Positions 7,827 to 36,604 are shown, counted from the first letter of the stretch. The stretch is DNA of 53,725 bases from an uncultured Verrucomicrobia subdivision 3 bacterium (GCA_903833055.1 CAILDU010000143.1:1-53725), one strand, 5' to 3'. Notes: a model not told the origin generated them from the letters alone. Program-made: numbers and translations.

Positions 7827-7844
7827 TTTGACACGGTAATTTTA

Positions 7845-8282
7845 GACACGGATTTCACGGATTAGCACGGATTTTTACAAAATAACTCTTTTCCACTCCA
7901 GTGAATCACCACCGAAGTTGACCAGCAAACCAACGTGCAACTTCGATGCGGCCAGATAATTCAAGACCTGCTTGACGTGCGGGTCAGCCAGTCGTTCGAC
8001 GGCTTTTGCCTCGAATAGAATTTTTCCTTCGACCACAAAATCAGCAAAATAAAAATGCGGTAGGATGACATCCTTGTATTTCACTTCAAATTTCTGTTCG
8101 CGTGCAAACGGAACATTCGCGCGACTTAATTCCACCACAAGTGCATCTTTGTATAGGACTTCATCGTGTCCTTTGCCCAGTTCGCGATGAATCTCCATGC
8201 AAAGCCCGATCAAACGGTGCGTGTCTTCGCGATAGAGAATTTCAGACATAAATAATCCGTGAAAATCCGTGCAATCCGTGTC
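7845..8282. mobile_element. cassette A: 438-bp TIR-bounded, TA-flanked element carrying one GxxExxY gene
   Basis: Left arm 7845-7874 is GACACGGATTTCACGGATTAGCACGGATTT. The reverse complement of 8253-8282 is GACACGGATTGCACGGATTTTCACGGATTA, identical in 26 of 30 positions. Each arm has three CACGGAT units with mirrored 9/10-bp spacing. TA lies at 7843-7844 and 8283-8284. Confidence 0.7.
7875..8249 (-). CDS. GxxExxY family protein (PD-(D/E)XK-like fold)
   Basis: The 124-aa core MSEILYRE...HRELGKGHDEVLYKDAL...DFVVEGKILFEAK...LVNFG matches the TIGR04256 GxxExxY pattern. The ORF-track start at 8327 runs into the repeat arm, so I prefer the ATG at 8249. Confidence 0.8.
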   Translation of the reverse strand: MSEILYREDTHRLIGLCMEIHRELGKGHDEVLYKDALVVELSRANVPFAREQKFEVKYKDVILPHFYFADFVVEGKILFEAKAVERLADPHVKQVLNYLAASKLHVGLLVNFGGDSLEWKRVIL

Positions 8283-8944
8283 TAGTTTTTCACGGCTTTG
8301 CCGCCCCAGCTTGCGTGCAAACCGCATTCGCGCTTTTCATCCGCCTTGGCCGGATCAAAATAATCCCACTCGTTGGGCAGGTTGTGCTGTTTCAGATAAT
8401 TTTCCATGTCCGCGTCGCTCCAGTAAAAGAGCGGGCTGACTTTCAGTGAATTGAAATTCTTGTCCTCGCTCACGATGTCGAGTTCCGCGCGATTCGGATT
8501 TTGCACTTTCCGCAACGCGGTGAGCCAGACGGTTGGCGCAAGTTCCTTCATGCCGCGCTGGAACGGTTCGAGTTTCATCGCGGTGCTGAAGGCTTTGATG
8601 CGCGCTTCATTTTCCGGCGTCGGTTCCGGCATGCCGCCGAACGCGGCGTCGTAATGCGCGGCGGTCATCTTCGGGATGTAAGCCTTGATGTTAAGCTTGA
8701 GCAATTTTTTAACTTCTTCGGCGTGCTTGTAAGTCGCGGGACGATTGTAACCGTGGTCAACCCACAGCACCGGAATGTCCGGCTGAACTTGTGTGACCAA
8801 GTGAAGAATCACCGCTTCGTAAGGCCGATAATTCGTCGAGACAATCGCGCGGCCATTCGCCTGCGCGATGGCCCACTTTACGATTTCCAGCGGCGATTTA
8901 GAACGCAACTCGGCGTTGGTTTGAGCAATTTGTTCAGAAGTCAT
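8282..8944 (-). CDS. cysH: phosphoadenosine phosphosulfate (PAPS/APS) reductase family protein
   Basis: PP-loop-type fold and C-terminal ECGLH motif, located between cysI and cysD. Its TAG stop is formed at the junction with cassette A. Confidence 0.8.
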   Translation of the reverse strand: MTSEQIAQTNAELRSKSPLEIVKWAIAQANGRAIVSTNYRPYEAVILHLVTQVQPDIPVLWVDHGYNRPATYKHAEEVKKLLKLNIKAYIPKMTAAHYDAAFGGMPEPTPENEARIKAFSTAMKLEPFQRGMKELAPTVWLTALRKVQNPNRAELDIVSEDKNFNSLKVSPLFYWSDADMENYLKQHNLPNEWDYFDPAKADEKRECGLHASWGGKAVKN

Positions 8945-8945
8945 T

Positions 8946-10631
8946 TTAGTTCGCAGCGACAGATTGCTCGTTCAAAAACACGCGGTCGCACCAGTCGCCG
9001 AAACGTTCGCTGGCGTTGCGTTCCTTTGCGAAACGCGCGAGGACGGGGCGCAATTCATTTTCGATGTCGGGATCTTTCATGACATCCTTCCAGACGCGAT
9101 TCAGGCGCGTGCCGGTCGCATCGCCGCCGAGCCAGACTTGATAACGTCCCGGCGCTTTGCCGACGAACGCGATTTCCGCCATGTAAGGCCGCGCGCAACC
9201 GTTCGGGCAGCCGGTCGAGCGAATAATAATTTCTTCGCTGCCGAGGCCGAGGTCGTCGCAAACTTTTTGAAGGCGGTCAATCAAGCCGGGCAGATAGCGT
9301 TCGGATTCCGCGAGGCCGAGGCCGCACGTCGGCAGCGAGGGACACGCCATCGAAGCCGCGTGCAAAATCGTGGTTTGATTTTCCGTCTTCACGCCATGCG
9401 CGGCGAGAATCGCGTTGATGGCCGCTTTGTCCGCATCCGAAACATTCGCGAGAATGAGATTTTGATTTGCGGTCAAACGGAATTCCACCTTTGGAAATTT
9501 ATCCGCGACCTGACGCAAACCTGTTTTCATTTTGCAAACGTCCGTGTCTTTCACGCGACCCATGCTGACGAATAGGCCGAGAAAATTGCTGCCGTCAACC
9601 GCCTTGCGCCAGTCGAGCAAGTCGGCGGTGGTCGTAAATTTGTAAGGTGCATTCGGCGCAAGCGTGATGCCGGCGCGCTTATTCACCTCGTCCTGCATGA
9701 ATTTTACGCCGCGTTCGGCTACGACATATTTCAGGCGCGCGTGCTTGCGGTCGGTGCGGTCGCCGAAATCGCGATGAATTGTCAGGACAGCTTTCGCCAC
9801 TTCGACAACTTTGTCCGGCGTGAAAAATCCGATGACGTCCGCGAGGCGCGGATATGTCTGCGTGTTGCCGTGGCTGCGACCGAGTCCGCCGCCGACGCAC
9901 AAATTGTAGCCGATAAGCTTGTCGTTCTCGACCACGGCGATGAAGCCGAGGCAGTTCGTGAACAAATCCAAATCGTTCACCGGCGGAATGACGAACGCGA
10001 TTTTGAATTTGCGCGGCAAATACGTTTTGCCGTAAAGCGGATCCACGAAATTTTTATTTTCCGCCGCGTCGTTGTCGAGCTGCACGCCATCAATCCAGAT
10101 GGAATGATACGCCTTGGTCTGCGGCGCGAGCGCGAGCGCGACTTTGTGCGCGTCGGCAAAAACCTGTTCGCGCGCGGGTGTGTAAGCGGGCGTGGGCGGC
10201 GCGAGAACATTGCGATTTACGTCGCCACAAGCCGCGAGCGTGGAGAGCAGGCACTCGTTAATTTTTTTGACGAGCGGTTGCAATCCGGCCATCACGACGC
10301 CGTGAAACTGGATGCTCTGGCGCGTGGTGATTCGCAAAGTATTATTGCCGTAATCCGTCGCGAGTTGGTCGAAGACGCCGTATTGTTTGGCCGTCATGAC
10401 GCCGCCGGGAATGCGGCCGCGAATCATCATGATATATTTTTTGCCGGTCTTGCGAAGGTCGCGGTCGTCCTGCTGATACGAGCCGTGAAATTTCAGGAAC
10501 TGGTTGTCGTCCTCGGAGAAATGGTCGTTGGCCGGATCGTTGAACGTCGCGGCAATCGTGCCGGCCAAGGTCGGGATGGCGGCCTTGATGTCTTCGTTGT
10601 GTGTCAATTTGACTGGTGCTTCAGCGCTCAT
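8946..10631 (-). CDS. cysI: assimilatory sulfite reductase hemoprotein (siroheme/4Fe-4S)
   Basis: TGCPNGCARP and CPSLPTCGLG cluster-binding motifs; 561 aa. Confidence 0.9.
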   Translation of the reverse strand: MSAEAPVKLTHNEDIKAAIPTLAGTIAATFNDPANDHFSEDDNQFLKFHGSYQQDDRDLRKTGKKYIMMIRGRIPGGVMTAKQYGVFDQLATDYGNNTLRITTRQSIQFHGVVMAGLQPLVKKINECLLSTLAACGDVNRNVLAPPTPAYTPAREQVFADAHKVALALAPQTKAYHSIWIDGVQLDNDAAENKNFVDPLYGKTYLPRKFKIAFVIPPVNDLDLFTNCLGFIAVVENDKLIGYNLCVGGGLGRSHGNTQTYPRLADVIGFFTPDKVVEVAKAVLTIHRDFGDRTDRKHARLKYVVAERGVKFMQDEVNKRAGITLAPNAPYKFTTTADLLDWRKAVDGSNFLGLFVSMGRVKDTDVCKMKTGLRQVADKFPKVEFRLTANQNLILANVSDADKAAINAILAAHGVKTENQTTILHAASMACPSLPTCGLGLAESERYLPGLIDRLQKVCDDLGLGSEEIIIRSTGCPNGCARPYMAEIAFVGKAPGRYQVWLGGDATGTRLNRVWKDVMKDPDIENELRPVLARFAKERNASERFGDWCDRVFLNEQSVAAN

Positions 10632-10710
10632 AGCGAGTTGTCAGGATAACTTGCCGCGTCGTATTGTTCAAGCGCAGCTTAAAGAGGATTTTGTCCGCTG
10701 AAAGATGGTC

Positions 10711-11574
10711 TTACGTCGCCGGCACAAATTTCTGTGACCATTTCGTCAAACCAAATAGCGCCAGCAAAATTAAACTCATCCAGCGCGAACAATCCGGCGC
10801 GATGGCGATCCAATCTACGAAGACAATTCCCGCCAGCAGATTCGCGACGATGAGGCCGACGTTACCGACGCCGCCCAGAAAAATTGTCCGCACGCTGCGG
10901 CCAACCCACAAAATTAAGACGACGGAAATCCAAATCGCGCGCCAGCGGAAACTGCCGGTGTTCATCGCCAGCGCCAGAATGATTGGCGCGGCCAGCAGCA
11001 GTAGCGGCCAGAACGGAATCGGCCCGCGATAACTTTCGCGCCGCGCGACGTAGCTCAAGCCGACGACGTAAAACGCCAATGCCAGTCCGCCGAAAATCGC
11101 CCAGCCGTTCAAGCCCCACGCGCCCGTCGCGCCCGCGATGACATAGACCCAGAAACGGCACGCGCCCATCAGCCACGGCGCGGCGTTGAAAAATTTGTGG
11201 CAGAAATTGTAGAGCAAGATGAACAGCGCGAGAAAAAATGCCGCGCCCGCCGCGACTTGGCCGCAGAAGAGCAGCAGGAAAATTCCCGCAACCAGTTGGC
11301 CGAAGCCGAAGCGCCAGACGAGTTGCGCCGAAATTTTTCCCGACGGAATCGGACGTTCCGGGCGGCGCTGGCGGTCGAAATCCGCGTCGAAGGCGTCGTT
11401 CAAAAACATTCCGCCGGTGTAGAGCAGACTGACGCCGAGAAATAAAAACGGCAGCTTCCAGAAATTGCCGCCGCCGCCGAGCCACCAGCCGGCGAGGCAG
11501 TTCGACCAGACGGTGGGCAAATTCGACACGCGTCCGAGGACGAGCAGCGTGCGGAGTTGCGGGGCGGAATTCAT
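10711..11574 (-). CDS. UbiA-family aromatic prenyltransferase (EboC-like)
   Basis: NDAFDADFDR and a second Asp-rich motif; about 8-9 TM helices. Confidence 0.75.
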   Translation of the reverse strand: MNSAPQLRTLLVLGRVSNLPTVWSNCLAGWWLGGGGNFWKLPFLFLGVSLLYTGGMFLNDAFDADFDRQRRPERPIPSGKISAQLVWRFGFGQLVAGIFLLLFCGQVAAGAAFFLALFILLYNFCHKFFNAAPWLMGACRFWVYVIAGATGAWGLNGWAIFGGLALAFYVVGLSYVARRESYRGPIPFWPLLLLAAPIILALAMNTGSFRWRAIWISVVLILWVGRSVRTIFLGGVGNVGLIVANLLAGIVFVDWIAIAPDCSRWMSLILLALFGLTKWSQKFVPAT

Positions 11575-11682
11575 GATGCGCGCGAAGGAAACCAGAAATG
11601 GCCGCGCGTGAAAAGAAAGTTTGCGGGCGGACGGAGGTGAACGACTAAAGTTTGCAGCCTAGCAAGCTGTGAGATTTCTGTC

Positions 11683-12165
11683 TCATGGCTTGCTAATCAG
11701 TTCCAAAATGTTTGTGTCAATCATGGGAACATCACTCGGCGAATTATCTTTGTGAACCTGTATTGAAACCAAGTTCAATAGGCATTTCTTGCCCGACAAT
11801 TTGCCATCTAAAATTTCTGCGGTAATCCAAATGCGTGGGCCTGCCTCAAAATCATAGGTGTAGTTTACCCTGTTGATTTTCAAAGTTGTGCCTTGTGGCA
11901 AGAGGTCAACATCCCACGCTGATGGGTTCTTTTGGAATTGTTCCAATGTTTCGGGAACTGCACCGAGATCAGCTTCTCCAATTTTAACAAGAAAGTTGCT
12001 GTCATCTATATTTTTACTAATCAATGAGAAAAAGACCGGTTGCTTAAGGACGTAATTTTGTGAGACGGCATAATCTGTATAGTAGTGATTCTTCGGAGAT
12101 GGTCTGTTGGTATTGCAGCCACAAGCCAGCAGGCTGCAACAAATCAGCGCAAAGAGAAATTTTTT
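11683..12165 (-). CDS. hypothetical lipoprotein (AT-rich gene)
   Basis: MKKFLFALICCSLLACGC signal peptide plus lipobox. Composition is visibly AT-rich against GC-rich flanks. I prefer the start at 12165 over the track start at 12210. Confidence 0.6.
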   Translation of the reverse strand, partial: KKFLFALICCSLLACGCNTNRPSPKNHYYTDYAVSQNYVLKQPVFFSLISKNIDDSNFLVKIGEADLGAVPETLEQFQKNPSAWDVDLLPQGTTLKINRVNYTYDFEAGPRIWITAEILDGKLSGKKCLLNLVSIQVHKDNSPSDVPMIDTNILELISKP

Positions 12166-12223
12166 CATAAGTGGCCTGTCTAGTTTTAATTCCCGAACAG
12201 TATTTCGCATTTAAGTTTTGGTT

Positions 12224-13447
12224 TCAAGCCAGCCCGCGCGCGGTTAATTGCGCCAGCGTCCAGTCGTATTCCGCCGCGAGTTGGTCCACGACGTTTTGCG
12301 TTTTCAATTCCGGCGGCAGCACTTCCCAAGTGTAGGTTTCCATTTCGAGGTGCGCGCAAATCTCCGGGCTGGCTTGCAGCAAATCCAAAATGCCGAGCAA
12401 ATGGTCGTTCGTGTTTTCAAACGGCGGCGCGGCGGGCGCGTGCAGCGGAACGTGGAAGTGAATCCGCCATTCGGGCAATTGCGAATTGCGAATTGCGAAT
12501 TGCGAATTTTCAGCAGCCAGCGCGTCGGGTAAATCGCGGAAGATTTTTCGTGCGCCGGTTTCGTCGCGTTCCACGACCTGATGCAGATAAACGTCGTCGG
12601 CAAATTTTTTCAATTCCTCGCGCGCTTCGGGCGTGGGCGAAACTTTGAGCGCGGAACTCAAATGGATTTTGCTGATCTTAATGCCGTGATTGACGAGGCA
12701 GGGCAGGGCGTTGTGCGGTTCCTCAAATTCCACGGCGAAATGGCAGGTGTCGTAATTGACGCCGAGATGCGCGTCGAGGCGCGGGTCGTGCGGATGCTCG
12801 GCGCGCAGGCGGTCAAAAAAATGAATCGTCTCGGCGCTGCTTTCGAGGAGGCAGAGCGGTTCGGGTTCGAGGCCGAGGTGCAAATTTTTGCCGGTCTGCT
12901 TGCTGACGTGCGCGATGTGCTCGACGGTGCGCCAGAGATTTTGGCGGATGGTTTTTAGCGCGTCGGCGGTCGGATGAAATTCCTTGAACGTGCCGGGCAA
13001 CGTGCTGACGCTCCCGGCAATTCCAGCGGGAACAAGTTGCGCGAGCAAATCGAAAAGCAGATTCGTGTAGGCGATACGTTCGGGCGAAGTCCAGTCGGGC
13101 GAATAAACTTTTTCCTTCACGCGCGCGCCGTGAAAATTGCCGTAGGGAAATCCGTTCATCGTGAAGACGTAGCAATTATTTTTTTCGAGCCAGCGCTGGA
13201 ATTGCAACCGCGCGTCGCCTTCGCTCAAATCCACGGCGGCGCGTTCGCTCAAGCGTAAACCGATGGCGAAAGGTTTTTGCGGGCAAACTTTCTCGCGCAC
13301 GGCGAGCGCGTAATTTTTCAGAGACCCAAACGTTTCCGGCCACGTCTCGCCGCGATGGACGTTGGTGCAGTAAGCGAGGTGCAAGCCGTGGTTGAGTTTC
13401 ATTTCTGGAAAAAAGATGCGCGGAAACCTTGATTTTGCAAGGTGCAA
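12224..13447 (-). CDS. xylose-isomerase-like TIM-barrel protein (EboE-like)
   Basis: The LAYCTNVHRGETW N-terminus and length resemble EboE-type sugar-phosphate isomerase/epimerase proteins. An alternative start is at 13402 (MKLNHG). Confidence 0.6.
   Translation of the reverse strand: MHLAKSRFPRIFFPEMKLNHGLHLAYCTNVHRGETWPETFGSLKNYALAVREKVCPQKPFAIGLRLSERAAVDLSEGDARLQFQRWLEKNNCYVFTMNGFPYGNFHGARVKEKVYSPDWTSPERIAYTNLLFDLLAQLVPAGIAGSVSTLPGTFKEFHPTADALKTIRQNLWRTVEHIAHVSKQTGKNLHLGLEPEPLCLLESSAETIHFFDRLRAEHPHDPRLDAHLGVNYDTCHFAVEFEEPHNALPCLVNHGIKISKIHLSSALKVSPTPEAREELKKFADDVYLHQVVERDETGARKIFRDLPDALAAENSQFAIRNSQLPEWRIHFHVPLHAPAAPPFENTNDHLLGILDLLQASPEICAHLEMETYTWEVLPPELKTQNVVDQLAAEYDWTLAQLTARGLA
12474..12508. 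repeat. heptamer tandem array, GCAATT + (GCGAATT)x4, inside the EboE-like CDS
   Basis: Read directly. It is translated as SQFAIRNSQ in the host ORF. Confidence 0.85.
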
Positions 13448-13500
13448 ACGGCGTTGACACTTTTGCTTGCGAGGTTTAGTCTTCAGAAAACAGCAAGACC

Positions 13501-14268
13501 ATGTTACTGCGCATCAGTTTAATTATCGCCATTCTGGCCGGCCTCGGGGCTGGCGTGGTTTCTTATCTCGAAGTGTCCGACAAGATTCCCGCGCTCGCCA
13601 AACAGCGCGACGACGAACATTCCGCCAAAGTCACCGCGCTCGGCGACCTTTCCAAAACCAAGACAGAACTCGCCAAGACCAAAAATGATTTGTCGCAGAC
13701 GAAGCAGGAATTGGCCGACACGCAATCTGAACGCGACAAGGCCGTTGTTCGTGCAGACGCGCAGGGCAAACGTGCTGACGAACTTACCGACAAGTTGAGC
13801 AAGGTCACGACGGAACGCGACGACGCGCAAAATTCTCTAGCCTCTTACAAAGCGACCGATCTGACGCCGGAACAAGTTTTCAAGTTGAGCAAAGATTTGA
13901 AGAGCGCGCGCGCCGAAGTGGAAGTTGTTAATGGCGAGAAAGTAGTTCTGTTCCACACCATCAGCCGCCTGACCAACGAACTCGCAAAATACGTCGGGCC
14001 GGAAGAATTTGTTAAATTGCGCGCCGACTTGCATGGCAAAATTCTCGTCGTGGATCCCAAATGGGATTTCGTCGTGATTAATGTCGGCGAAGATCAAGGC
14101 GTGATTTCCCAAGGCGAAATGCTCGTCAGCCGTCAGGGCAAGCTGGTCGCCAAAGTCGTCGTCCGCAGCGTCCAAAAAGACCGGTGCATCGCCAACCTCG
14201 TCCCCGGTTGGAAGATTGGCGAGATGACCGAAGGCGACGATGTTTCTCCCGCGCATCCTTCCACCTAA
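13501..14268 (+). CDS. hypothetical membrane-anchored coiled-coil protein
   Basis: N-terminal TM helix, a long charged heptad-like region (KTKTELAKTKNDLSQTKQELADTQSE) and a beta-rich C-terminal domain. Confidence 0.6.
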   Translation: MLLRISLIIAILAGLGAGVVSYLEVSDKIPALAKQRDDEHSAKVTALGDLSKTKTELAKTKNDLSQTKQELADTQSERDKAVVRADAQGKRADELTDKLSKVTTERDDAQNSLASYKATDLTPEQVFKLSKDLKSARAEVEVVNGEKVVLFHTISRLTNELAKYVGPEEFVKLRADLHGKILVVDPKWDFVVINVGEDQGVISQGEMLVSRQGKLVAKVVVRSVQKDRCIANLVPGWKIGEMTEGDDVSPAHPST

Positions 14269-15018: not shown

Positions 15019-15234
15019 TCACAAATTATCCACGAATTCTTCCGGTGAGATGCCCGCCTGACGCAACACGCCGCGCAACGTGCCTTGATCCACTTCACGG
15101 TGCATCGGCACAACACAGACGCTGCCGCCGCGCCGCAGCACGAGATGGCTGCCTTTTTGCCGCTGGCGGACGAAGCCCAGACGCTCCAGTGCTTTCGCTA
15201 CCTTTGCGCCGGAAACGCAGGGGAGTTTAGGCAT
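15019..15234 (-). CDS. hicA: HicA-family mRNA interferase toxin
   Basis: 71 aa; KVAKALERLGFVRQRQKGSHLVLRR is a typical HicA/YcfA pattern. Confidence 0.8.
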   Translation of the reverse strand: MPKLPCVSGAKVAKALERLGFVRQRQKGSHLVLRRGGSVCVVPMHREVDQGTLRGVLRQAGISPEEFVDNL

Positions 15235-15436
15235 GTTCCAACTCGAAGGTGGTCAGGATGGCGCCGCTGCGGTCGGGCAGGTCCTGCTCCTCCAGAAACA
15301 GCGACGTGGCTTCCTTGAGATTTTTCAACGCCTCCTCGACCGTCTTGCCCTGCGTGGTCGTGCCGGTTTCGGGATTGTAGGCCACCAGCCAGCGTTTGGT
15401 TTCACCGGGATAGATAATCGCCGTGAGCGTCTTCAT
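15227..15436 (-). CDS. hicB: HicB-family antitoxin (UPF0150-type)
   Basis: 69 aa with the GKTVEEALKNLKEA motif. Overlaps hicA by 8 nt. Confidence 0.75.
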   Translation of the reverse strand: MKTLTAIIYPGETKRWLVAYNPETGTTTQGKTVEEALKNLKEATSLFLEEQDLPDRSGAILTTFELEHA

Positions 15437-15611
15437 GCGGCCAAGCTAAACGATGCCGACACCGTTGGCAAATGGGGAAAAACATTCTTGACCGTTGATT
15501 CTCGCGGATTGACGCGGATAATTTTCCGGCGCACACTCGCCGCTGTCCGAAAATAAAATACAAACAACGATTATTATTTAATTAACAATTTTGCGTAGCT
15601 ACGGCTACGGG

Positions 15612-15726
15612 CTGCACCGAAAACCTGGAAATTTTCAAGCCCGCACACAGCAACCGACCGAGCGCGCCCAAATGGGCGCGGCTTGGCGTGCTTGCTGTGT
15701 AGGCGCTTCCAGGTGCCTCGGTGCAG
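15612..15726 (+). ncRNA. GC-rich rod-like hairpin (about 115 nt), candidate structured RNA or leader upstream of the methyltransferase
   Basis: Nested complementary segments: CTGCACCGA/TCGGTGCAG (15612-20 with 15718-26), CCTGGAA/TTCCAGG (15624-30 with 15707-13), ACACAGCAA/TTGCTGTGT (15645-53 with 15692-700), and CGCGCCC-AAAT-GGGCGCG (15663-80). An AT-rich stretch precedes it and a T-run follows at 15748-56. Strand is assumed from the downstream genes. Confidence 0.45.
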
Positions 15727-15791
15727 GGTGCGTTAAGTCCGCGCCTCTTCTTTTTTAGAATTCCCGTTTCCGCCCGCTCGCAGCGGAAACC

Positions 15792-16778
15792 ATGGCAACT
15801 AAAAGTTCAAATTCATTTTTGCAAAAGGCAAAGTCCGCAAAAAAGGATGAGTTTTACACGCAACTTTCTGACATTGAGAAGGAACTAAAAAATTACAAAG
15901 CGCATTTGAAAGGCAAAGTCGTCTTGTGCAATTGCGACGACCCGCGCGTCAGCAATTTTTTCCACTATTTCTCTTACAAATTTAAGCAGTTAGGGTTGAA
16001 GAAGCTCATCGCAACCTGCTACAAAAATCAGTGTGCTGACCTCTTCAGTCAAAACGATTCAGAAAAGGCGATCTACTTGGAATATAATGGTGACAAAAAT
16101 GGAAACAACATTCCCGACTCCGAAGAAATCGGCATTAAGCAATTAAAAGGCGATGGCGATTTTCGCAGTGCTGAATGTGTTGAGCTATTGAAGAGGGCAG
16201 ACCTCGTCGTGACCAATCCACCGTTCTCCCTATTCCGGGAATATGTTGCCCAACTCGTCGAACATGATAAGAAATTCATTATCATCGGCCACCAGAATGC
16301 GATTACCTACAAAGAGATCTTCAAGCTGATTAAGGAAAATAAACTATGGTTGGGATATGGCTTCAACCGTAATTGCGCGCACTTCATAAACCGGCATTAC
16401 GTTGATTATGCATCAGACGCCGACCACAGGGAAGGAATGATAAGAGTTTCAGGCGTTCAATGGTTCACAAATATGGACACCACGAAACGCCACGAAGAAT
16501 TAATTTTATACAAAAAATATCATCCTAACGAATATCCAAAATACGACAATTACGATGCAATCGAAGTTAGCAAGACGACGAATATTCCGATGGATTATGC
16601 CGGCCCTATGGGCGTTCCCATTACGTTCCTTAACAAATATAATCCCGACCAATTTGACATCTTGGGAAATCTTGGTTCGTATGCGCCTGATGGCTATTCC
16701 TTGATTGGGGCAATTTTCATCAACAAAAAGAAGATTTATAAACGCATCCTTATAAAAAATAAAAAACCTTTGGTATGA
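15792..16778 (+). CDS. adenine-specific DNA methyltransferase, EcoRI-methylase-like family
   Basis: DEFYTQ N-terminal motif, VTNPPF catalytic motif (NPPF), 328 aa, AT-rich codon usage. Confidence 0.75.
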   Translation: MATKSSNSFLQKAKSAKKDEFYTQLSDIEKELKNYKAHLKGKVVLCNCDDPRVSNFFHYFSYKFKQLGLKKLIATCYKNQCADLFSQNDSEKAIYLEYNGDKNGNNIPDSEEIGIKQLKGDGDFRSAECVELLKRADLVVTNPPFSLFREYVAQLVEHDKKFIIIGHQNAITYKEIFKLIKENKLWLGYGFNRNCAHFINRHYVDYASDADHREGMIRVSGVQWFTNMDTTKRHEELILYKKYHPNEYPKYDNYDAIEVSKTTNIPMDYAGPMGVPITFLNKYNPDQFDILGNLGSYAPDGYSLIGAIFINKKKIYKRILIKNKKPLV

Positions 16779-17881
16779 ATATTGAACTGAAAAGAATAAC
16801 CGTTGGCGAATTGGCGGATGGCTATGAAGACAACGCGGAAGGTGGCGTTGTTGCGTTCGGCGGCAAGCTGGACGTGCGGCCGCCGTATCAGCGGGAGTTC
16901 ATCTACAAGGACAAGCAGCGCGATGCCGTCATCAACACCGTCACCAAAGGTTTTCCGCTGAACGTGATGTATTGGGCGGTGCGTGCGGACGGCGGCTTTG
17001 AGGTGATTGACGGGCAGCAGCGCACTATTTCCGTTTGCCAGTATGTGACGGGCGTTTTTTCGTTTCAAAACTTGTATATCCACAATCTGCCAGACGACGT
17101 GCGGGAAAAAATTCTCGGCTACAAGCTCATGATTTATCAATGCACCGGCACGGACAGCGAGAGGCTTGATTGGTTCAGAACGATCAACATTGCAGGAGTA
17201 AAACTATCAGACCAGGAATTGCGGAACGCCGTCTATGCCGGCTCGTGGGTTTCCGACGCGAAACGATATTTCAGCAAAACAGGCTGTGCCGCATATCAAA
17301 TCGGACAAGATTATCTCGATGCTGAACTAAATCGTCAGGGATATTTGGAGACCGCTATTGATTGGATTTCGGAAGCATATGGGAACGCGGACATCATCGA
17401 GAAATACATGGGCAAGCATCAGCACGCTAAAGACGCCAAGAAGCTTTGGGAGTATTATCAAGCGGTGATTGATTGGGTGGGTGAAACATTTACCAAGAAG
17501 CGAAGCAAAATAATGAAGGGCGTTCCGTGGGGTGTTCTCTACAATAAATTTAAGGACGAAAAGTTTGACCCGAAGAAAATCGAGGCAGAGACGGTGAAGT
17601 TGATTGACGATGACGAAGTGACAAATCAAAAAGGAATTTACCGATACATTTTGACGCGCGACGAAAAATATCTCTCGCTCCGCACGTTCAACGATAAGGA
17701 GAAGCAAAAGGCTTACGAAAAACAAAAAGGCATCTGCCCGAAATGCCCGAAGTCAAAGCATTGGGAGCTTGAAGAAATGGAAGCCGACCACATTACGCCG
17801 TGGCACGCAGGCGGGAAAACCATGCTGGATAATTGCCAGATGCTTTGCAAAGACCACAACCGGAGAAAGTCAGGGAAGTAA
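16775..17881 (+). CDS. DUF262 (ParB/Srx-like NTPase) - HNH endonuclease fusion protein
   Basis: The N-terminal RPPYQREFIY...IDGQQR motif is typical of DUF262. The C-terminus CPKC...EADHITPWHAGGKTMLDNCQMLCKDHN is a canonical HNH. An ATGA overlap couples it to the methyltransferase. Confidence 0.8.
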   Translation: MNIELKRITVGELADGYEDNAEGGVVAFGGKLDVRPPYQREFIYKDKQRDAVINTVTKGFPLNVMYWAVRADGGFEVIDGQQRTISVCQYVTGVFSFQNLYIHNLPDDVREKILGYKLMIYQCTGTDSERLDWFRTINIAGVKLSDQELRNAVYAGSWVSDAKRYFSKTGCAAYQIGQDYLDAELNRQGYLETAIDWISEAYGNADIIEKYMGKHQHAKDAKKLWEYYQAVIDWVGETFTKKRSKIMKGVPWGVLYNKFKDEKFDPKKIEAETVKLIDDDEVTNQKGIYRYILTRDEKYLSLRTFNDKEKQKAYEKQKGICPKCPKSKHWELEEMEADHITPWHAGGKTMLDNCQMLCKDHNRRKSGK

Positions 17882-17889
17882 TCCGTGTT

Positions 17890-19278
17890 TCATCCGTGTG
17901 CATCTGTGGTATTCCGTTTTTCTGAAAATTGTTTCCGCCAGTTTTCGAGGCGCTCCTTGATTTTCTTTTCCACGCCTTGTTCCGTCGGCTCGTAATAAGT
18001 TTTGTCCACGCCCAGATAATCTTGCGCGACGAAATGGTCCTTGCCGTCGTGCGCGTATTCGTAGCCTTTGCCGTGGCCGAGCCGTTCCGCACCCTTGTAA
18101 CTTTTATCGCGCAAATGTTCCGGCACGGCCAGCGTGCGACCGGAACGCACGTCTTCCAGTGCGGCGTCAATCGCCATGTAAGCGGAATTACTTTTGTTTG
18201 CCGTGGCGATGTAAATCGTCGCTTCGGCCAATGGAATCCGCGCTTCCGGCCAGCCGACAAATTCCGACGCGGCGAGGCACGCGTTCGCCAAAACCAAAGC
18301 CATCGGGTCGGCGAGGCCGACATCTTCCGCCGCGCAAATCACGATGCGCCGCGCGATGAAGCGCGGGTCTTCGCCGGCGTGAATCATCTTGGCGAGCCAG
18401 TAAAGCGCGGCGTCGGGATCGCTGCCGCGCATGGATTTGATGAACGCGGAAATGGTGTCGTAATGCGCGTCGCCATCACCGTCATAAACCACGGCCTTTT
18501 TCTGGATGCTCTGCGCGGCGACTTCCAGCGTGATTCGGACAACGCCATCAGTATCTGGTGAAGTTGTCAGCGCGGCGATTTCGAGCGAGTTGAGCGCCTT
18601 GCGCGCGTCGCCGTCGGCGATTTTGGCAAGATGGCGCAAGGCGTTTTCATCGGCGGAAATTTTCAGATAGCCGAGACCGCGTTCCTCGTCTTTCAACGCG
18701 CGTTGCAGCAATGAAAATAAATCTTCTTCCGTCAGCGGGCGCAGTTCGAAGATTTGCGAGCGCGAGACGAGCGGCGAATTGACGAAGAAAAACGGATTGT
18801 GCGTCGTCGCGCCGATGAGCTTGATGACGCCGCTCTCGACATCCGGCAGCAAAACATCCTGCTGTGATTTGTTGAAGCGGTGGATTTCGTCAATGAAGAG
18901 AATTGTGGATGCGCCAGTGTTTTCAAGGCGATTGGCCGCTGCTGACAAAACGCGCCGCATATCGGCGACGTTGGATTCCACGCCGCTCAATCTTTCAAAT
19001 TTTGATTTGGTCTGCCGCGCGATGATTTGCGCGAGCGAGGTTTTTCCCGTGCCGGGCGGCCCGTAAAAAATCAGCGACTGGATTCTATCTGCTTCAATGG
19101 CGCGGCGCAAAAGTTGGCCGCGGCCGAGGATGTGGGTTTGCCCAGCATACTCATTTAAGTTGCGCGGGCGCATCCGCGCGGCGAGCGGCTGGCTGCGAAA
19201 GTTATTTTCGGCGGCGGACACAATTTCTTCTTCCGGCAATGCTTTTGCCGGTTGGGAAAATAGTTCGTCGCGCGCCAT
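17890..19278 (-). CDS. rarA: replication-associated recombination protein A (AAA+)
   Basis: GPPGTGKTS Walker A, IDEIHRF box and MgsA C-terminal domain. The last codons and the stop lie inside the right repeat arm of cassette C. Confidence 0.9.
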   Translation of the reverse strand: MARDELFSQPAKALPEEEIVSAAENNFRSQPLAARMRPRNLNEYAGQTHILGRGQLLRRAIEADRIQSLIFYGPPGTGKTSLAQIIARQTKSKFERLSGVESNVADMRRVLSAAANRLENTGASTILFIDEIHRFNKSQQDVLLPDVESGVIKLIGATTHNPFFFVNSPLVSRSQIFELRPLTEEDLFSLLQRALKDEERGLGYLKISADENALRHLAKIADGDARKALNSLEIAALTTSPDTDGVVRITLEVAAQSIQKKAVVYDGDGDAHYDTISAFIKSMRGSDPDAALYWLAKMIHAGEDPRFIARRIVICAAEDVGLADPMALVLANACLAASEFVGWPEARIPLAEATIYIATANKSNSAYMAIDAALEDVRSGRTLAVPEHLRDKSYKGAERLGHGKGYEYAHDGKDHFVAQDYLGVDKTYYEPTEQGVEKKIKERLENWRKQFSEKRNTTDAHG

Positions 19279-19346: not shown

Positions 19347-19382
19347 TGCCGGGTTGCTAAAAGCAGTCCGGTAATCTTGAAA

Positions 19383-19570
19383 GAAACCCCGCCATTGCCG
19401 TGTCTAACTGTATCCTTCGGACATATGTTTCCATATGTGGGACTCGCCCGATGGCTTACAACTTTCGGACGTAATGCCGACGTGTTGGCCACCGTCTGCG
19501 GCTCATCCCGAGTTCGTTTTATTTACGGTCCAAGGACTGTTGCGAATCACGCACAGGGCAGGGAAATTAT
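19383..19570 (-). ncRNA. ssrS: candidate 6S RNA
   Basis: On the minus strand, the 5' end AAUUUCCCUGCCCUGUGCGUGAUUCGCAACAGUCC and the 3' end ACAGUUAGACACGGCAAUGGCGGGGUUUC resemble the E. coli 6S termini. The closing stem CCCUGCC-CUGUG pairs with CACGG-caau-GGCGGGG using G-U wobbles. Length is about 190 nt, in a 450-nt gene-free gap, followed by a terminator. Confidence 0.5.
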
Positions 19571-29998: not shown

Positions 29999-30015
29999 AG
30001 AATGTGGCAATAATT

Positions 30016-31854: not shown

Positions 31855-32030
31855 GTTGATCTTCCTTTTGTAAGTTCCTGCATGCCCCCTAGTGTAATTA
31901 GCCGCCTCGTCCGCAGCTTTGCAAAATTTGCTAAAGTATCAACTTATTTTATTGGCACTAGTTGGCCGCACATTAAGTCAAAATTATTATTACTTCGCGC
32001 CGCAAATGTCCTTGTGCTAGAAGTTAAGCC

Positions 32031-34352
32031 ATGAGTTCAGGACATGGACATCGGCACGAAGAACCGGCGGCAATTTGTCTGGCGCGCTGCGTCGCTGATA
32101 CATTTTCCGAGGAGCCGATGCTGGAAGCGGTGACGATTGATACTGTGCAAAAGAAAATTTCCGTCGCTACGCTCGGTCGCGCCGACGTGGAAAAACTCAC
32201 ACAAAAAATTTCTGCTAAAATTTCGTCCGCACAAAATTCCGCTGCCAGCGAAACCTGTTCTTTATTTTCCGGCAAAAATAATTGCGCCGTGTGCGACTCG
32301 CCATTGTCTGCGAACGAACAAAAACTTATCACCATCCACCGCGACGCCACGGCTACGACCATCGCGCGCGTCACCTGTCCGACCGCACCGAAGTTCTGGC
32401 GCTGGCGCGATATTCCGTTTCCCAAAATTGCGCCGCGCGAAATGGAAATCCACGACGACGACCACCACATTGACGAATGGAAAGGCCAGCTCGTCCTCGC
32501 CATCGCGTGTGGCGTGGCCGGATTGACGGCTTACTTTTTCGGCAAAGCCGATCAACCGGGAATCGCCATTATTAGCTACGCCATTGCTTATCTCGCGGGC
32601 GCATTTTTCGCCGCCGAAGAAGTTTTGGAGCGTCTACACAAACGCATATTGGACGTGCATTTTCTCATGCTTGCCGTTGCGTTTGGCGCGGCCACCATCG
32701 GTGCGTGGGCGGAAGGCGCGACGCTGCTATTTCTGTTTTCCTTTTCCGGCGCACTGGAGCATTACGCCTTTGGCCGCACGCAGAAGGAAATCCGCTCGCT
32801 CTTCCGCGATGCGCCGAAAACCGCCACGCTCATTGACGCGAATGGAAACGAAACAGAAATTCCCGTTGAAAACATTTCCAAAGGCGTGCGTTTGCTCATC
32901 AAGCCCGGCGCGCAATTTCCCGTGGACGCGGAAATCGCCAAGGGAAACACCGCTGCGGATGAATCCAATCTCACCGGTGAAGCTGCGCCCGTCGAAAAAA
33001 TCATTGGCGACACCGCGCTCGCTGGCACTTTGAATCTTTGGGGCGCGGTTGAAGTCATCGTCCTGCGACCGGCGGCGGAAAGCTCGCTGCAAAAAATCAT
33101 CACGCTCATCCGCGAGGCGCAGCATCAGAAAGCGCCCGCGCAAATGTTTGCCGACAAGTTCAGCACCTTTTACACTTACGGCGCGCTCGGCCTGTCGCTC
33201 GCGATGTTTTTTGTGTGGCGGTTTGTTTTGAATTATCCGGCGTTCACTTCCACCGCCGAAGTTCACAGCGCATTTTATCGCACGATGACGCTGCTCGTCG
33301 TGTCATCGCCGTGCGCGCTCGTGCTGTCCATCCCGTCCGCCGTGCTGGCGGCAATCGCGTGGGCGGCGCGGCATGGAATTTTATTTCGCGGCGGCGCAGC
33401 GGTGGAAAAACTGGCCGAAATCAACGTCGTCGCGCTCGACAAAACCGGCACGCTCACGACTGGCGAACTGCGCGTGGAACAGGTGGAAAGTTTTCCGCCC
33501 GGACGCGAAAATGAAATCGCGCAGCTTGCGTATTCGCTGGAAAAATTGTCCACGCATCCGCTCGCCCGCGCCATCACGCGCCACGGCAAACAGCAGAATC
33601 TCGCGACGCACGAATTCTCGCAGTTTGAATCCGTCACCGGCCAAGGCTTGAAAGCGAAGCGCGATGGCAAAGAAGTTTTTTTGGGCAAACGCGAATGGGT
33701 GGAGACGCAAATGGCGCGCGGTGAATTTGCCGCGCCGCAATCCGGCGTGGGCACGTCCGAAGTCTGGATTGCCAGCGACGGTTTGATTGGCCGCGTTGTG
33801 TTGCGCGACGACATCCGTCCGCAGTCGGCGGAGGTGATGGCGCAATTGCGCGCACGCGGGCTGCATATTGTTGTGCTGACCGGCGATCGCGAAGCTGCCG
33901 CTGAACATTTGCGAACGGAATTAAAACTCGACGACGTGCGCGCCGAGTTGAAGCCGGAACAAAAAGTCGCGGCAATTCAGGAATTTTCCGCTGCCGGAAA
34001 AAAGGTGGCGATGATTGGCGACGGCGTGAATGACGCGCCGAGTTTGGCCGTCGCGCATATCGGCGTGGCAATGGGCGCGCGCGGGGCGGACGCCGCGTTG
34101 GAGCAGGCCGACGTGGTGCTGATGAACGACAAGCTGGAAAATTTTCTCGCTGCGTTCCGTTTGAGCCATCGCGCGCGGAGCATTATCCGGCAGAATCTTT
34201 TTATCTCGCTCGGCACGGTCGTCGTGCTGGTGACGTTCGCGTTGTTCGGCAAAATCCCGCTGACCCTCGGCGTGGTCGGCCACGAAGGCAGCACGGTCAT
34301 CGTCGTGATGAACAGCCTGCGGCTGCTATTCGGGGGTGGGAAAAAACTTTAG
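32031..34352 (+). CDS. heavy-metal translocating P1B-type ATPase (SPC motif)
   Basis: DKTGTLT phosphorylation site, SPC in the transmembrane metal site, GDGVNDAP hinge and a His-rich N-terminus (GHGHRHEE). Confidence 0.9.
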   Translation: MSSGHGHRHEEPAAICLARCVADTFSEEPMLEAVTIDTVQKKISVATLGRADVEKLTQKISAKISSAQNSAASETCSLFSGKNNCAVCDSPLSANEQKLITIHRDATATTIARVTCPTAPKFWRWRDIPFPKIAPREMEIHDDDHHIDEWKGQLVLAIACGVAGLTAYFFGKADQPGIAIISYAIAYLAGAFFAAEEVLERLHKRILDVHFLMLAVAFGAATIGAWAEGATLLFLFSFSGALEHYAFGRTQKEIRSLFRDAPKTATLIDANGNETEIPVENISKGVRLLIKPGAQFPVDAEIAKGNTAADESNLTGEAAPVEKIIGDTALAGTLNLWGAVEVIVLRPAAESSLQKIITLIREAQHQKAPAQMFADKFSTFYTYGALGLSLAMFFVWRFVLNYPAFTSTAEVHSAFYRTMTLLVVSSPCALVLSIPSAVLAAIAWAARHGILFRGGAAVEKLAEINVVALDKTGTLTTGELRVEQVESFPPGRENEIAQLAYSLEKLSTHPLARAITRHGKQQNLATHEFSQFESVTGQGLKAKRDGKEVFLGKREWVETQMARGEFAAPQSGVGTSEVWIASDGLIGRVVLRDDIRPQSAEVMAQLRARGLHIVVLTGDREAAAEHLRTELKLDDVRAELKPEQKVAAIQEFSAAGKKVAMIGDGVNDAPSLAVAHIGVAMGARGADAALEQADVVLMNDKLENFLAAFRLSHRARSIIRQNLFISLGTVVVLVTFALFGKIPLTLGVVGHEGSTVIVVMNSLRLLFGGGKKL

Positions 34353-35594
34353 CCACAGATTTCCACAGATGAAACACAGATGGGGAAACGCCAAGACATT
34401 AAGTCGCCGACCAGAATTCAATTTGCTATTAAACGGTTTAGTTCGCCGTAAGTCTTACCTCGGTGTTTTTCAATAAAAGTTGCTAAAACGCGCCAATAAT
34501 TTCTTTTACGATACTTGGTAAGTGTATTGCATAACCAAGTAATGCAGCCCCTACTATCACAAGTTGTTTATGTTTATTAAACACTTTATGCCTCGCAATA
34601 GAATAGGCGGGTCGTTTAATTGCGCCCCATAATGTTGAATGAATGGAAAGCAGCCCTGCTAGAGTGAGTAGCAGGACAACCAAAAACAACCACGCCACTC
34701 CATAAAATCCCAAGAAACAAATTACATAGTCAAAATGAGAGTGTGCTACGAATCCATATAAAACTCGCCCCGTGCTATCAGTGTTTTTGTAAAGACTGCT
34801 ACTCATTGTATAGACAATAAATCCTATAACCATTAAGGCTAAAATTATCCCCTTACTTTTGTTATTAGATTTTTTGCCTATGAATACAGTTTCAACAACA
34901 TTACGAAATATAGGTGGAAACTGAATAATTGCTATCAATGCAAATACAAGAGGGGGCGCATTGATAAACAAATAATCAATCATAGTCATATCGGGATATA
35001 CGTCAGGGCTGATTTTTGAAAAATAAAACGTATCTGTTACTATTTGACATAAGAAAACAAGGATGGAAACCGTAGCAGTAATTAACCACAGCCGTTTACT
35101 TTGCTGATATGTCTTTAGAAGCGGTGATAGTAACAATGCGAGAAATGAGACAGCGAAACTGAATTGGCTAACATTGTGTAATAGGAAATAGTCCAAAGTT
35201 AGTCCCCTGCTCGCAAAATATATTGTGCAGATAGACACCATGGAACTTATTGTAAGAAAAGATAAGCAGCAGTTAGAAACCAGATTTTGTTTAGTCCATA
35301 CCTTATCACCAAAGATTTTAGTTATCCCTAAATTAGCAGCCAGTCCTAGTTTCTGAATAATTGTGACATGGCCACGAATAGCTTTTTCACTCTTTTCATC
35401 TAGAAATCGCCAAAGCTCATCTAACTTATTATGTATAGTATTTTCCTCATTTTCATAAAGGAAAAGACCGCAATACACAAATACCGCACCGGCCATTCCA
35501 GCCAAGCAATGAGAATCAAAAACAAGCCAGTCCATATTTTTGTTTTACTGGATAGGCTTGCCGAATCTGTGTTTCATCTGTGGAAATCTGTGGC
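34352..35594. mobile_element. cassette D: 1243-bp element with perfect 30-bp terminal inverted repeats and TA/TA flanks, carrying one AT-rich membrane-protein gene
   Basis: 34352-34381 GCCACAGATTTCCACAGATGAAACACAGAT is identical (30 of 30) to the reverse complement of 35565-35594. Each arm has three CACAGAT units, spaced 10/11 bp and mirrored. TA lies at 34350-51 and 35595-96. Confidence 0.8.
34483..35535 (-). CDS. orphan polytopic membrane protein (about 8-9 predicted TM helices)
   Basis: 350-aa ORF, strongly AT-rich, with multiple long hydrophobic segments. I recognise no family motif. Confidence 0.6.
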   Translation of the reverse strand: MDWLVFDSHCLAGMAGAVFVYCGLFLYENEENTIHNKLDELWRFLDEKSEKAIRGHVTIIQKLGLAANLGITKIFGDKVWTKQNLVSNCCLSFLTISSMVSICTIYFASRGLTLDYFLLHNVSQFSFAVSFLALLLSPLLKTYQQSKRLWLITATVSILVFLCQIVTDTFYFSKISPDVYPDMTMIDYLFINAPPLVFALIAIIQFPPIFRNVVETVFIGKKSNNKSKGIILALMVIGFIVYTMSSSLYKNTDSTGRVLYGFVAHSHFDYVICFLGFYGVAWLFLVVLLLTLAGLLSIHSTLWGAIKRPAYSIARHKVFNKHKQLVIVGAALLGYAIHLPSIVKEIIGAF

Positions 35595-36604
35595 TAGGAC
35601 TTGGGCGGCGCGGTGCTTTTGCGTTCCACAAATTCGGCGGCGAGGCGTTTCAACTGGATTTTTTCGCCGCGAATCAGCTTCATCATTGTTTCCATCGCCG
35701 TTACGCCGAGCCGGTATTTCGGCTGGCTGACGGTGGTGAGTGGCACGCGATAATGTTCCGCCGTCAAAATATTGCCAAAGCCGACGATGGAAATGTCGCC
35801 GGGAATTTTGATGCCCTGTTGCAATAAAGTTTCCGCGCAGCCGATGGCCACAAGGTCGCTCACGGCCATGATGGCGGTCGGCTCGACGCCTTCGTTGAGC
35901 ATCTGCAACGCGGCTTTCGTGCCGTCTTCAATGGTGTTGCCGGATTGAAAAACCAGTTTGTCGTCCACCTCGATGTTCGCTTCGCGCAGCGCGCGGCGGA
36001 AACCCTCGAAGCGTTCGTGCGCCCACGGCGCGGCGGGCGGGCCGGTGAGATAGGCAATTTTTTTATGGCCGAGCGCGATGAGATGTTTCGTGGCGTTGTA
36101 GCTGGCGACGAGTTCCTCGATTTCGATGGCGGGAAAATTTTTACAAAACGGCGCGGGCGAACCGAGCAAAATGGTCGGCGTATTGCGTGCAATAATTTCC
36201 TGATAAATCCGCGCTTCGGCTTCGAAGCGATAAACGGGAACAATAAAAAGTCCATCCACGCGGCGCGAAAGCAGTCGGCGCAGGCAGGCGTCCTCGCGTT
36301 CGGGTTTGTTGTAAGTGTGGCAGAGCAGTAGGTCGTAACCGAGTTCGTGGGCGCGTTCCTCGATGGCAAAAACGATGCGCGCGTAAATGGGATTCGTCGT
36401 GGACGGAATGACGAGGCCAAACAGTTTGGTGGTCTTGGTGCGGAGACCTTGCGCGCTGGAATCGGGAACGTAACCCATGTCCGCCGCGAGTTTTTTGATC
36501 TTGGCTTTGGTGGCGGCGGAGACATCCGGCTCGTCGCGCAAGGCTTTCGAGACGGTCATCACGGAGACGCCGACGATTTGGGCAATGTCTTTTAAGCGAA
36601 CCAT
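35594..36604 (-). CDS. LacI-family transcriptional regulator
   Basis: N-terminal HTH MVRLKDIAQIVGVSVMTVSKALR followed by a periplasmic-binding-protein-like sugar-binding domain. Confidence 0.9.
   Translation of the reverse strand: MVRLKDIAQIVGVSVMTVSKALRDEPDVSAATKAKIKKLAADMGYVPDSSAQGLRTKTTKLFGLVIPSTTNPIYARIVFAIEERAHELGYDLLLCHTYNKPEREDACLRRLLSRRVDGLFIVPVYRFEAEARIYQEIIARNTPTILLGSPAPFCKNFPAIEIEELVASYNATKHLIALGHKKIAYLTGPPAAPWAHERFEGFRRALREANIEVDDKLVFQSGNTIEDGTKAALQMLNEGVEPTAIMAVSDLVAIGCAETLLQQGIKIPGDISIVGFGNILTAEHYRVPLTTVSQPKYRLGVTAMETMMKLIRGEKIQLKRLAAEFVERKSTAPPKS

Follow-up and report, generated by a model that had tools for sequence, protein, structure and literature searches.

The window analysed here, the whole stretch of 53,725 nucleotides from an uncultured Verrucomicrobia subdivision 3 bacterium (GCA_903833055.1, CAILDU010000143.1:1-53725), carries three cassettes, A, C and D, which are bounded by inverted arms built from the heptamer CACRGAT and whose arms belong to a family of repeats that recurs across phyla, with the gene of a GxxExxY protein, as found in A, as its characteristic partner. 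Rescanning of the window confirmed the coordinates and the shared consensus of the arms given in the initial annotation. Indeed, six arms form three inverted pairs (A, 7843-8284; C, 15491-17910; D, 34350-35596), each arm comprising two to three CACRGAT heptamers at a spacing of 9-11 bp. The heptamer occurs in 20 copies in the window versus 10.3 ± 3.3 in shuffled sequences, and 15 of the 20 are concentrated in five tight clusters, which are five of the arms. The pattern AATCYGTG-N2-4-ATCYGTG-N2-4-ATCYGTG gives four matches versus none in 100 shuffles and the left arm of D fails it by its first base only, four to five three-heptamer arrays being present in the window versus zero expected. Furthermore, a generalised scan of the 53.7 kb, in which ATC[CT]G[TC]G was searched with at most one mismatch and the matches were chained, returned exactly the six arms and nothing further. 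Outside the arms, only five CACRGAT copies were counted versus about ten expected, a borderline depletion that would be expected if the heptamer were the target of a nuclease or of a binding protein.

The arms of D (34350-34388 and 35558-35596; 39 nt, 92% complementary) rank first among the inverted repeats of the window, and those of A (7843-7876 and 8251-8284; 34 nt, 88% complementary) rank third. The arm of A adjoining cysD reads TA-GA-CACGGAT-TT-CACGGAT-TAG-CACGGAT, and the arm adjoining cysH ends with the trinucleotide CTA, which is at once the last 3 nt of the cassette and the cysH stop codon. The right arm of C (17880-17910; ATCCGTG-TTTC-ATCCGTG-TGC-ATCTGTG-G-TA) is intact and its left arm (15491-15520; CCGTTGAT-TCT-CGCGGAT-TGA-CGCGGAT) is degenerate, being made of a weaker unit, CCGTTGAT, and of two CGCGGAT units; this left arm coincides with a fall in GC content from 58% to 47% that starts there. 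As the initial annotation had stated, stop codons of host genes abut or fall within the arms of all three cassettes: in addition to the cysH stop, the stop of a P-type ATPase gene forms the first 3 nt of D (TAG) and that of a LacI gene its last 3 nt (CTA), and the gene of RarA, on the minus strand, has its stop and its last six codons inside the right arm of C. A TA dinucleotide lies directly outside all five intact arm ends of the window and, when D is excised together with one TA, both host stops are restored (expected empty site AAAAAACTTTAGGACTTGG), a single TA being common to both.

The whole inter-arm space of A is occupied by one open reading frame (ORF) of 124 codons (7875-8249, minus strand), located between cysH and cysD and on the same strand as both, which encodes a GxxExxY protein (PF13366 PDDEXK_3/TIGR04256). 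It scores 129.4 bits with TIGR04256 (cut-off 35) and 117 bits with PF13366 (cut-off 22) and is thus a member of the family. The residues G27, E30, Y33, D70, E80, K82, Q94 and Y98 are invariant in the GxxExxY alignment, and the protein bears the D...ExK...QxxxY motifs of RecB/Cas4-type nucleases. This gene is the only one of its kind in the window; no remnant of it was found inside C or D, and no relative of the protein was found in the PDB by sequence.

Cassette C contains two adjacent genes on the plus strand, the first encoding an EcoRI-type N6-adenine methyltransferase (15792-16778; PF13651 at 8e-132) and the second a protein with GmrSD_N/DUF262 and HNH endonuclease domains (16775-17881). 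The type II models of PADLOC are matched over positions 1-326 of 332 (MTase_II, 6e-121) and 1-368 of 372 (REase_II, 4e-130), and from the adjacency of the genes and these full-length matches the cargo of C is identified as a type II restriction-modification system. The content initially reported for C, namely a hairpin, a methyltransferase and a DUF262-HNH nuclease, is therefore present and can be specified as a full-length type II methyltransferase and restriction enzyme pair. The GC-rich and near-perfect hairpin of 115 nt (15612-15727, plus strand; -93 kcal/mol, z = -6.65), located upstream of the methyltransferase gene, had no Rfam match in an E-value search around it and may represent either a leader or a palindromic element in its own right. 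Immediately beyond this degenerate arm, genes for a HicA toxin (15019-15234) and its DUF7387 partner (15227-15436) are encoded on the minus strand, and a weak pair of heptamer-like units (15020-15037) makes it possible that the element once extended further.

Cassette D carries, on the minus strand, a gene (34483-35535) for a multi-pass membrane protein of 350 aa from an uncharacterised family, with a GC content of 36% in a genome of 55% GC. This protein had been described as an orphan, and a word-indexed search indeed found no close relative; however, it is not one in the strict sense, as an exhaustive HMMER search retrieved 510 distant relatives, the nearest with 37% identity. Two of the distant relatives (P0321 and P0381) have about 340 aa of leucine-rich repeats fused at the N-terminus, which hints at a role of the membrane domain as the effector of a sensor-effector protein.

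The occurrence of heptamer arrays around GxxExxY genes was examined in a sample taken without any selection for arms. Metagenome contigs were searched with an alignment of four GxxExxY proteins, giving 80 diverse loci of which 74 had enough flank to test. At 52 of these 74 loci the inverted alignment of the upstream and downstream flanks scored above every shuffled control; at least three periodic heptamers were present on a flank at 53 of 74 loci versus 4 of 75 control windows, and a 6-mer common to both flanks, found at least twice and inverted, at 35 of 74 loci versus 0 of 97 controls. About 70% of the GxxExxY genes in this unselected sample are flanked by inverted heptamer arrays. The arms have most often three heptamers, spaced by 9-10 bp. 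The heptamer itself varies from locus to locus (CACGGAT, CACAGAT, CGCAGAT, CGCGGAT, CACGAAT, CACAAAT, CACTAAT, CGCGAAT, CACGAAG, CGCGAAG, CACGAAC and others) and agrees between the two arms of one locus, with an outer end reading ...GTGG or ...GCGG. The arrays often enter the ORF, N-termini such as MNTDEHG or MNADE being translated heptamers and stop codons lying inside a heptamer, and some loci are laid out as [L][R]-ORF-[R] or [L][R]-ORF-[L][R]. Since GxxExxY is consistently tied to the arms, A represents the canonical unit, and C and D the exceptions. Such arms are characteristically associated with this gene across phyla, and it is not one of three equivalent cargos; hence, of the initial proposal of one architecture with three unrelated cargos, the differing contents within one arm design are retained, but the equivalence of GxxExxY with the other two is not.

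The arms themselves are found far beyond the window. Scans of reference-genome contigs and of viral contigs, in a collection of 596 Gb, located the arm pattern at at least 120 loci in each of the two sets, for a chance expectation that we estimate at about 5 in 596 Gb. The genome matches listed cover Verrucomicrobiota, Acidobacteriota, Planctomycetota, Bacteroidota, Chloroflexota, Proteobacteria, Spirochaetota, Patescibacteria and archaea. Complete chromosomes assembled from metagenomes (OZ244846.1, OY970193.1 and OZ246960.1) were also among those matched. Among the matches listed, to which all counts of pairs, ends and arms given below refer, 148 left-then-right pairs were obtained from 240 loci (78 in genome and 70 in viral contigs), which bears out the recurrence of inverted pairs expected from the initial annotation. 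As many as 133 of these pairs (72 of 78 and 61 of 70, respectively) are shorter than 300 bp, so that the elements occur most often as doublets of 50-200 bp without cargo. The inverted repeat continues just 2-8 nt past the outermost heptamer, with the outward consensus GTG-G-Y-T-A-A-A. Among the six longer, cargo-bearing genome pairs, three have GxxExxY as cargo, one encloses a YafQ toxin gene with a putative partner ORF, one element of 2.6 kb encodes an HSDR_N-type nuclease-like protein with DUF3368/UPF0175 and a HicB-like gene, and one is without an ORF. The catalogue of cargos is thereby extended to further contents, including toxin-antitoxin and nuclease genes, under the same arms. All four GxxExxY genes located within the 2 Mb of array-centred loci adjoin arms.

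Some of these loci have particular features. In a metagenome-assembled genome of Patescibacteria (L043, 4576-5176), a tmRNA gene (4667-5070) lies between two complete CACAGAT doublets with four to five heptamers per arm. A sub-family of doublets (L047, L100 and L127) shares about 20 extra conserved bases outside the heptamers (…AAAAGCAGTTCAGC/CACGGATTAACAC…), the arrays being sub-terminal in this case and not terminal. The idea that the all-A heptamers of D are the mark of a low-GC donor was rejected, the choice between G and A in the heptamer showing no relation to the GC content of the locus (Spearman 0.08, p = 0.36).

Terminal inverted repeats with internal sub-repeats are also what would be seen in non-autonomous transposons, namely miniature inverted-repeat transposable elements (MITEs) or mobile insertion cassettes (MICs), of a conventional DDE insertion sequence (IS), for instance a TA-duplicating one of the IS630/Tc1-mariner type whose transposase is encoded elsewhere in the genome and for which GxxExxY is the commonest passenger. 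MICs with passenger genes are an established category, and the TA outside the five intact ends, the restoration of both host stops upon removal of D with one TA, and the sequence N-Y/A-T-A that follows the outermost heptamer at 26% of the ends are all in line with such an origin. However, only 15 of 144 pairs elsewhere have TA at both ends with the same gap of 2 nt and, TA being palindromic, it is not distinguishable from the inverted repeat itself; a TA target duplication is therefore unproven. As initially described, the elements are transposase-less: no transposase domain was detected in A, C or D, and none inside any element examined. Furthermore, no transposase or recombinase was found between the 148 pairs or adjoining about 110 unpaired arms (2 Mb), where the DDE_3 and HTH_Tnp transposases of the IS630/Tc1-mariner type were not seen next to any arm, and all-against-all comparison of ORFs together with some Pfam scans disclosed no recurrent ORF family inside or beside the arms. 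The autonomous copy with the same ends that the initial annotation had suggested looking for is thus lacking at these pairs and arms. Moreover, a mere passenger would not show arrays at about 70% of a cross-phylum sample with heptamers that change along with it, and the arms of A have persisted unchanged through a dS of about 0.8 (see below), which is unexpected for the ends of an immobile MITE. Altogether, a conventional DDE element as the source of the arms appears unlikely.

The history of A can be followed at the cys locus, where the homologues of cysD assign the host to Verrucomicrobiota, in the vicinity of Limisphaerales. Its close GxxExxY homologues (78-92% identity) are located, for every one looked up, between cysH and cysD in other species. 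They had been considered as possible paralogues at other sites, which would have proved transposition, and this was rejected, all of them being orthologues at the same junction. The orthologues in L227, L228 and L354 are separated from A by a dS of 0.77-0.87 with a dN/dS of 0.04-0.07, equal to that of cysD, which indicates purifying selection. Of the four lineages compared, three have an identical left arm: 32 of 32 positions are the same in the window and L227, L354 has the same heptamers and spacers, and L228 has lost one heptamer. The arm spacers are also conserved among the orthologues, even though those of the left arm are not complementary to those of the right. The imperfect arms of A had been attributed to decay with age, an explanation contradicted by orthology at a dS of about 0.8, by purifying selection and by the conserved left arm.

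The same junction was inspected for alternatives in lineages whose cysD is closer to that of the window than are those of L227, L228 and L354. L139 (98% cysD identity) has a different, cargo-less CACRGAT doublet there, L140 a doublet of CGCAGAT, L143 a palindrome of GGAGATR units with a period of 7, and L145 an IVP gene between CCAGACG-type arrays. The junction is never empty in the relatives examined, other members of the family occupying it. Persistence of A together with these alternative occupants implies that the elements are both long-lived and replaceable, and the pattern fits an exchange between family members better than simple decay. With regard to the comparison of empty and filled sites called for initially, turnover of members at one junction is observed, but not a clean empty site with a target duplication; in the source population, the cassettes are present on every contig that encodes identical cargo or neighbour proteins.

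Conservation in place of the arms and gene of A, as strong as that of a housekeeping gene, would also agree with fixed regulatory or architectural sites, either operators for autoregulation or sites for a nucleoid or silencing protein that bracket foreign genes, the sites being immobile and served by a shared host factor. The overlap of arrays with start and stop codons and the foreign composition of D and C would be explained as well. Nevertheless, differing array types at one junction in sister lineages require replacement and not drift, near-identical arm designs are found in Bacteroidota, Acidobacteriota, archaea and viral contigs, and cargo-less doublets have nothing to regulate. We therefore consider fixed sites highly improbable.

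A second type of cassette lies one gene from A, between cysD and cysN (6460-6887, minus strand). Here, a 23S_rRNA_IVP/four-helix-bundle gene (6495-6869) is set between inverted period-7 arrays of GGAGATR/GCAGATR units (GCAGATA GGAGATA GGAGATG ... / ...CATCTGCCAACTCCCATCTCC), with its ATG and AGGAG box inside the array, and its product is related to PDB 2gsc (3.6e-11). This cassette parallels A in layout and differs from it in repeat type. The cysD-cysN junction contains an IVP gene between period-7 arrays in L228 as in the window, a pair of genes for 70 and 134 aa in L139 (4978-5591) and L145 (5190-5594), and a Bro-N ORF in L354 (4359-4823); it is empty in L143, with 17 bp (4940-4956). In the interval between sir and cysH, genes for DUF433, AbiEii and other small ORFs are present (L140 and L145). 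The intergenic gaps of the cys operon are hot spots for small accessory genes.

The position of palindromic elements directly after stop codons and inside operons, with A and the IVP cassette co-oriented with cysH-cysD-cysN, raises the question of whether the arms act in RNA, as a stem in the transcript that is cut by RNase III or serves as terminator or mRNA stabiliser and insulates the host genes, spread being secondary. IVP genes are classically located inside rRNA intervening sequences, and a TTTT run occurs within 14 nt outward of 44 of the 133 short doublets, that is about a third, so that some of them may double as terminators. On the other hand, arm mismatches in the GxxExxY sample that are G:U-compatible on the sense strand are not in excess (117 versus 103), which argues against a purely RNA-level stem, and the spacers of A are conserved in orthologues yet not complementary between arms. 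A stem also leaves three identical 7-mers at a spacing of 9-10 bp unexplained, C and D lie outside operons of co-oriented genes, and no Rfam family is matched, the gathering search of the window and 18 loci having found only 6S RNA, tmRNA and tRNA. An action in RNA is accordingly a distinctly unlikely explanation. Between the two arms of a locus, the variable positions of the heptamers agree at 84% versus 67% for the spacers. Three identical 7-mers that recur about once per helical turn usually point to a protein that binds on one side of the double helix, and we infer that such a protein may contact the arms.

The initial annotation had been unable to place the cassettes in a described family. 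This holds for the arms as such: they match no Rfam family, no description of their sequences was found in the searchable literature, and nothing was found there on flanking repeats linked to GxxExxY, PDDEXK_3 or IVP. It does not hold for the general kind, which is already known, both as elements bounded by terminal inverted repeats (TIRs) without a transposase (MITEs and MICs) and as palindromic doublets tied to one gene (REPIN/RAYT). Look-alikes of the heptamer in other systems, namely DnaA boxes, the V(D)J-type CACAGTG heptamer and PhoB-type direct repeats, were discarded, none of them fitting the spacing, orientation and flanks.

The closest system is REPIN-RAYT in logic and the MITE or MIC in form. 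RAYTs are single-copy, whereas multi-copy families are reported for GxxExxY. REPIN-RAYT systems combine REP doublets with a REP-associated tyrosine transposase (PMC3116915, PMC5581495, bioRxiv 10.1101/2021.07.10.451892). As in these systems, short palindromic doublets are scattered in extragenic DNA (the 133 short pairs above), the repeat stands in inverted copies on either side of a gene for a small enzyme, the associated gene is inherited vertically at a fixed locus under purifying selection, as seen for A, and the repeat sequence differs between lineages. Unlike in REPIN-RAYT, the bracketed gene encodes a PD-(D/E)XK protein of the GxxExxY family and not an IS200/IS605-type HUH/Y1 transposase, each arm is built from an array of three 7-mers instead of a single REP hairpin, the arms also carry other genes, and their range extends over many phyla, archaea and viral contigs. 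MITEs and MICs are TIR-bounded and without transposase, may or may not have passenger genes, and are a category of ISfinder/ISsaga (PMC3129680; PMC6199540). The present elements resemble them by their terminal inverted repeats, by the absence of a transposase inside, by a content ranging from none to several genes and by their intergenic location. They differ from them in that no cognate IS with these ends was found among the matches listed, in that the arms are conserved in place over the long term, and in that a single nuclease family provides the usual passenger, with flanks that vary along with it.

Other known elements are less similar. Intervening sequences (IVSs) of rRNA genes, of which Leptospira and Coxiella are carriers, share with our elements a small ORF between inverted ends and the occurrence, at one site, of forms that have this ORF and forms that lack it, and the IVP gene of the window is in the same kind of cassette one gene from A. 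By contrast, the elements described here are located in protein-gene operons or intergenic DNA, and not in rRNA (the Rfam search detected no rRNA gene in the window), and their arms are heptamer arrays, those of the IVP gene being contiguous with a period of 7, unlike the spaced CACRGAT arms. ORF-bearing and ORF-less versions of IVSs at the same sites have been described and are unexplained (bioRxiv 10.1101/2024.02.27.582315). A further resemblance, in palindromic TIR structure, TA ends, proximity to genes and lack of a transposase, is to the Correia elements. These elements (CREE/NEMIS) of Neisseria are palindromes of 100-150 bp with TIRs and TA ends, which are adjacent to genes and co-transcribed with them, and for which no transposase is known; they are restricted to one genus, however, and have an unrelated TIR of 26 bp without heptamer arrays and no ORF. 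Lastly, integron cassettes are promoterless single-gene units with diverse cargos and imperfect palindromes, relying on IntI and attI and on an attC at the 3' end with R'', L'', L' and R' boxes. The cassettes of the window are likewise single-gene units bounded by imperfect palindromes with diverse cargos, but they have an arm at either side of the gene, made of direct heptamer repeats, in place of one 3' attC. Pfam scans of the genes adjoining A, C and D, which did not extend to every ORF of the window, revealed no integrase or tyrosine recombinase, and no attC-like architecture or cassette array was seen at A, C and D; the analogy with integrons drawn initially thus finds no support and breaks down for each defining feature tested. 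A similarity to attC through a GTTRRRY-like flank was also rejected, this flank being found in a minority of elements only and not in the window.

On the basis of the observed architecture and distribution, the association with GxxExxY, the vertical persistence, the selection on gene and arms and the turnover at the junction, we give an even chance to A, C and D belonging to a widespread family of palindromic heptamer-array elements, either REPIN/RAYT-like or MITE/MIC-like, and centred on a predicted PD-(D/E)XK nuclease. In this reading, the canonical unit, exemplified by A, is a GxxExxY gene that encodes a minimal PD-(D/E)XK nuclease (about 125 aa) and fits tightly between an inverted pair of arms, each arm usually made of three copies of a 7-mer CRCNNAN (here CACRGAT) with a spacing of 9-10 bp. 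The commonest of the other forms is the cargo-less doublet of two arms, of 50-200 bp, and rare derivatives would have kept the arms around other small selfish or conflict genes, such as the type II restriction-modification pair of C, the membrane protein of D and toxin-antitoxin pairs elsewhere. The arms would be bound at the DNA level by a protein acting in trans, for which the GxxExxY nuclease is the most economical candidate, and nuclease-bearing copies would stand to empty or cargo-substituted copies as RAYTs stand to REPINs, or ISs to MITEs and MICs. Spread or exchange may then begin with breaks that the nuclease makes at the arms and be completed by repair or recombination of the host.

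More tentatively, GxxExxY proteins might provide the catalysis for minimal DNA elements of a new class, either mobile or self-maintaining, in which a nuclease of about 125 aa would recognise helically phased heptamer arrays at both ends of its own gene. In most prokaryotic phyla and in their viruses, it would thereby cause thousands of doublets, empty or with cargo, to spread, to be maintained or to exchange cassettes. We consider this role of the nuclease possible rather than probable.

Several observations count against a nuclease-centred family. A behaves as a stably inherited and selected gene rather than as an active transposon, no clean empty and filled CACRGAT pair with a target duplication was found, the contigs of the same population all carrying the three cassettes, and TA flanks, as mentioned above, are not general. 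The association of GxxExxY with the arms is positional only. The relation between heptamer class and protein similarity (52.7% versus 48.0% identity, permutation p = 0.007) is weak and confounded by phylogeny. The AlphaFold model of the GxxExxY protein is of poor to modest quality (pLDDT 62.7), and its best fold matches, to the RecB/Cas4-type nucleases Cas4 SSO0001, Bax1 and AddAB, are not significant (E >= 0.18). In addition, viral contigs often contain CACRGAT arrays but hardly ever GxxExxY, which was found there at a single locus, between CGCNAAA arms; a gene in cis is therefore not required by the arms, and any action of the protein on them would be in trans.

These elements matter first for two abundant families without known function, GxxExxY (PF13366/TIGR04256) and the free-standing four-helix-bundle IVP. 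PDDEXK_3 was listed as 'Unknown', with many horizontal transfers, in a 2012 survey of PD-(D/E)XK proteins. The systematic bracketing by co-varying arrays gives GxxExxY a concrete and testable context, that of a nuclease with cognate DNA sites. If the nuclease does act on the arms, the result would be a mobile or self-maintaining element based on a fold that is not known as a stand-alone transposase, and a way for small conflict genes to be inserted beside stop codons without damage to host genes. A catalytic role, if true, would account for the large GxxExxY family, and by extension for free-standing 23S_rRNA_IVP genes with their own arrays, possibly also for the origin of rRNA intervening sequences. 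The arm family provides a cross-phylum marker for cargo-bearing cassettes and may bear on how these intervening sequences spread.

Other repeats and RNA features were noted in the window. Perfect or near-perfect tandem heptamers occur within long ORFs at 12477-12508 (AATTGCG, 4.6 copies), 41264-41297 (GAATTGC, 4.9 copies), 41478-41511 (AAAACTC, 4.9 copies), 41658-41688 (TGCCATC, 4.4 copies) and 47623-47651 (TCCGCAC, 4.1 copies), three of these five arrays lying within one ORF of 365 aa, and TGCCATC is the unit that flanks the IVP gene of the window. They resemble the cyanobacterial STRR heptamer repeats. A 6S RNA gene is located at 19382-19567 on the minus strand (65.9 bits). Finally, two inverted segments of 44 nt, each with a GC hairpin (AGCCCGGC…GCCGGG), lie at 47010-47178 between two minus-strand ORFs.

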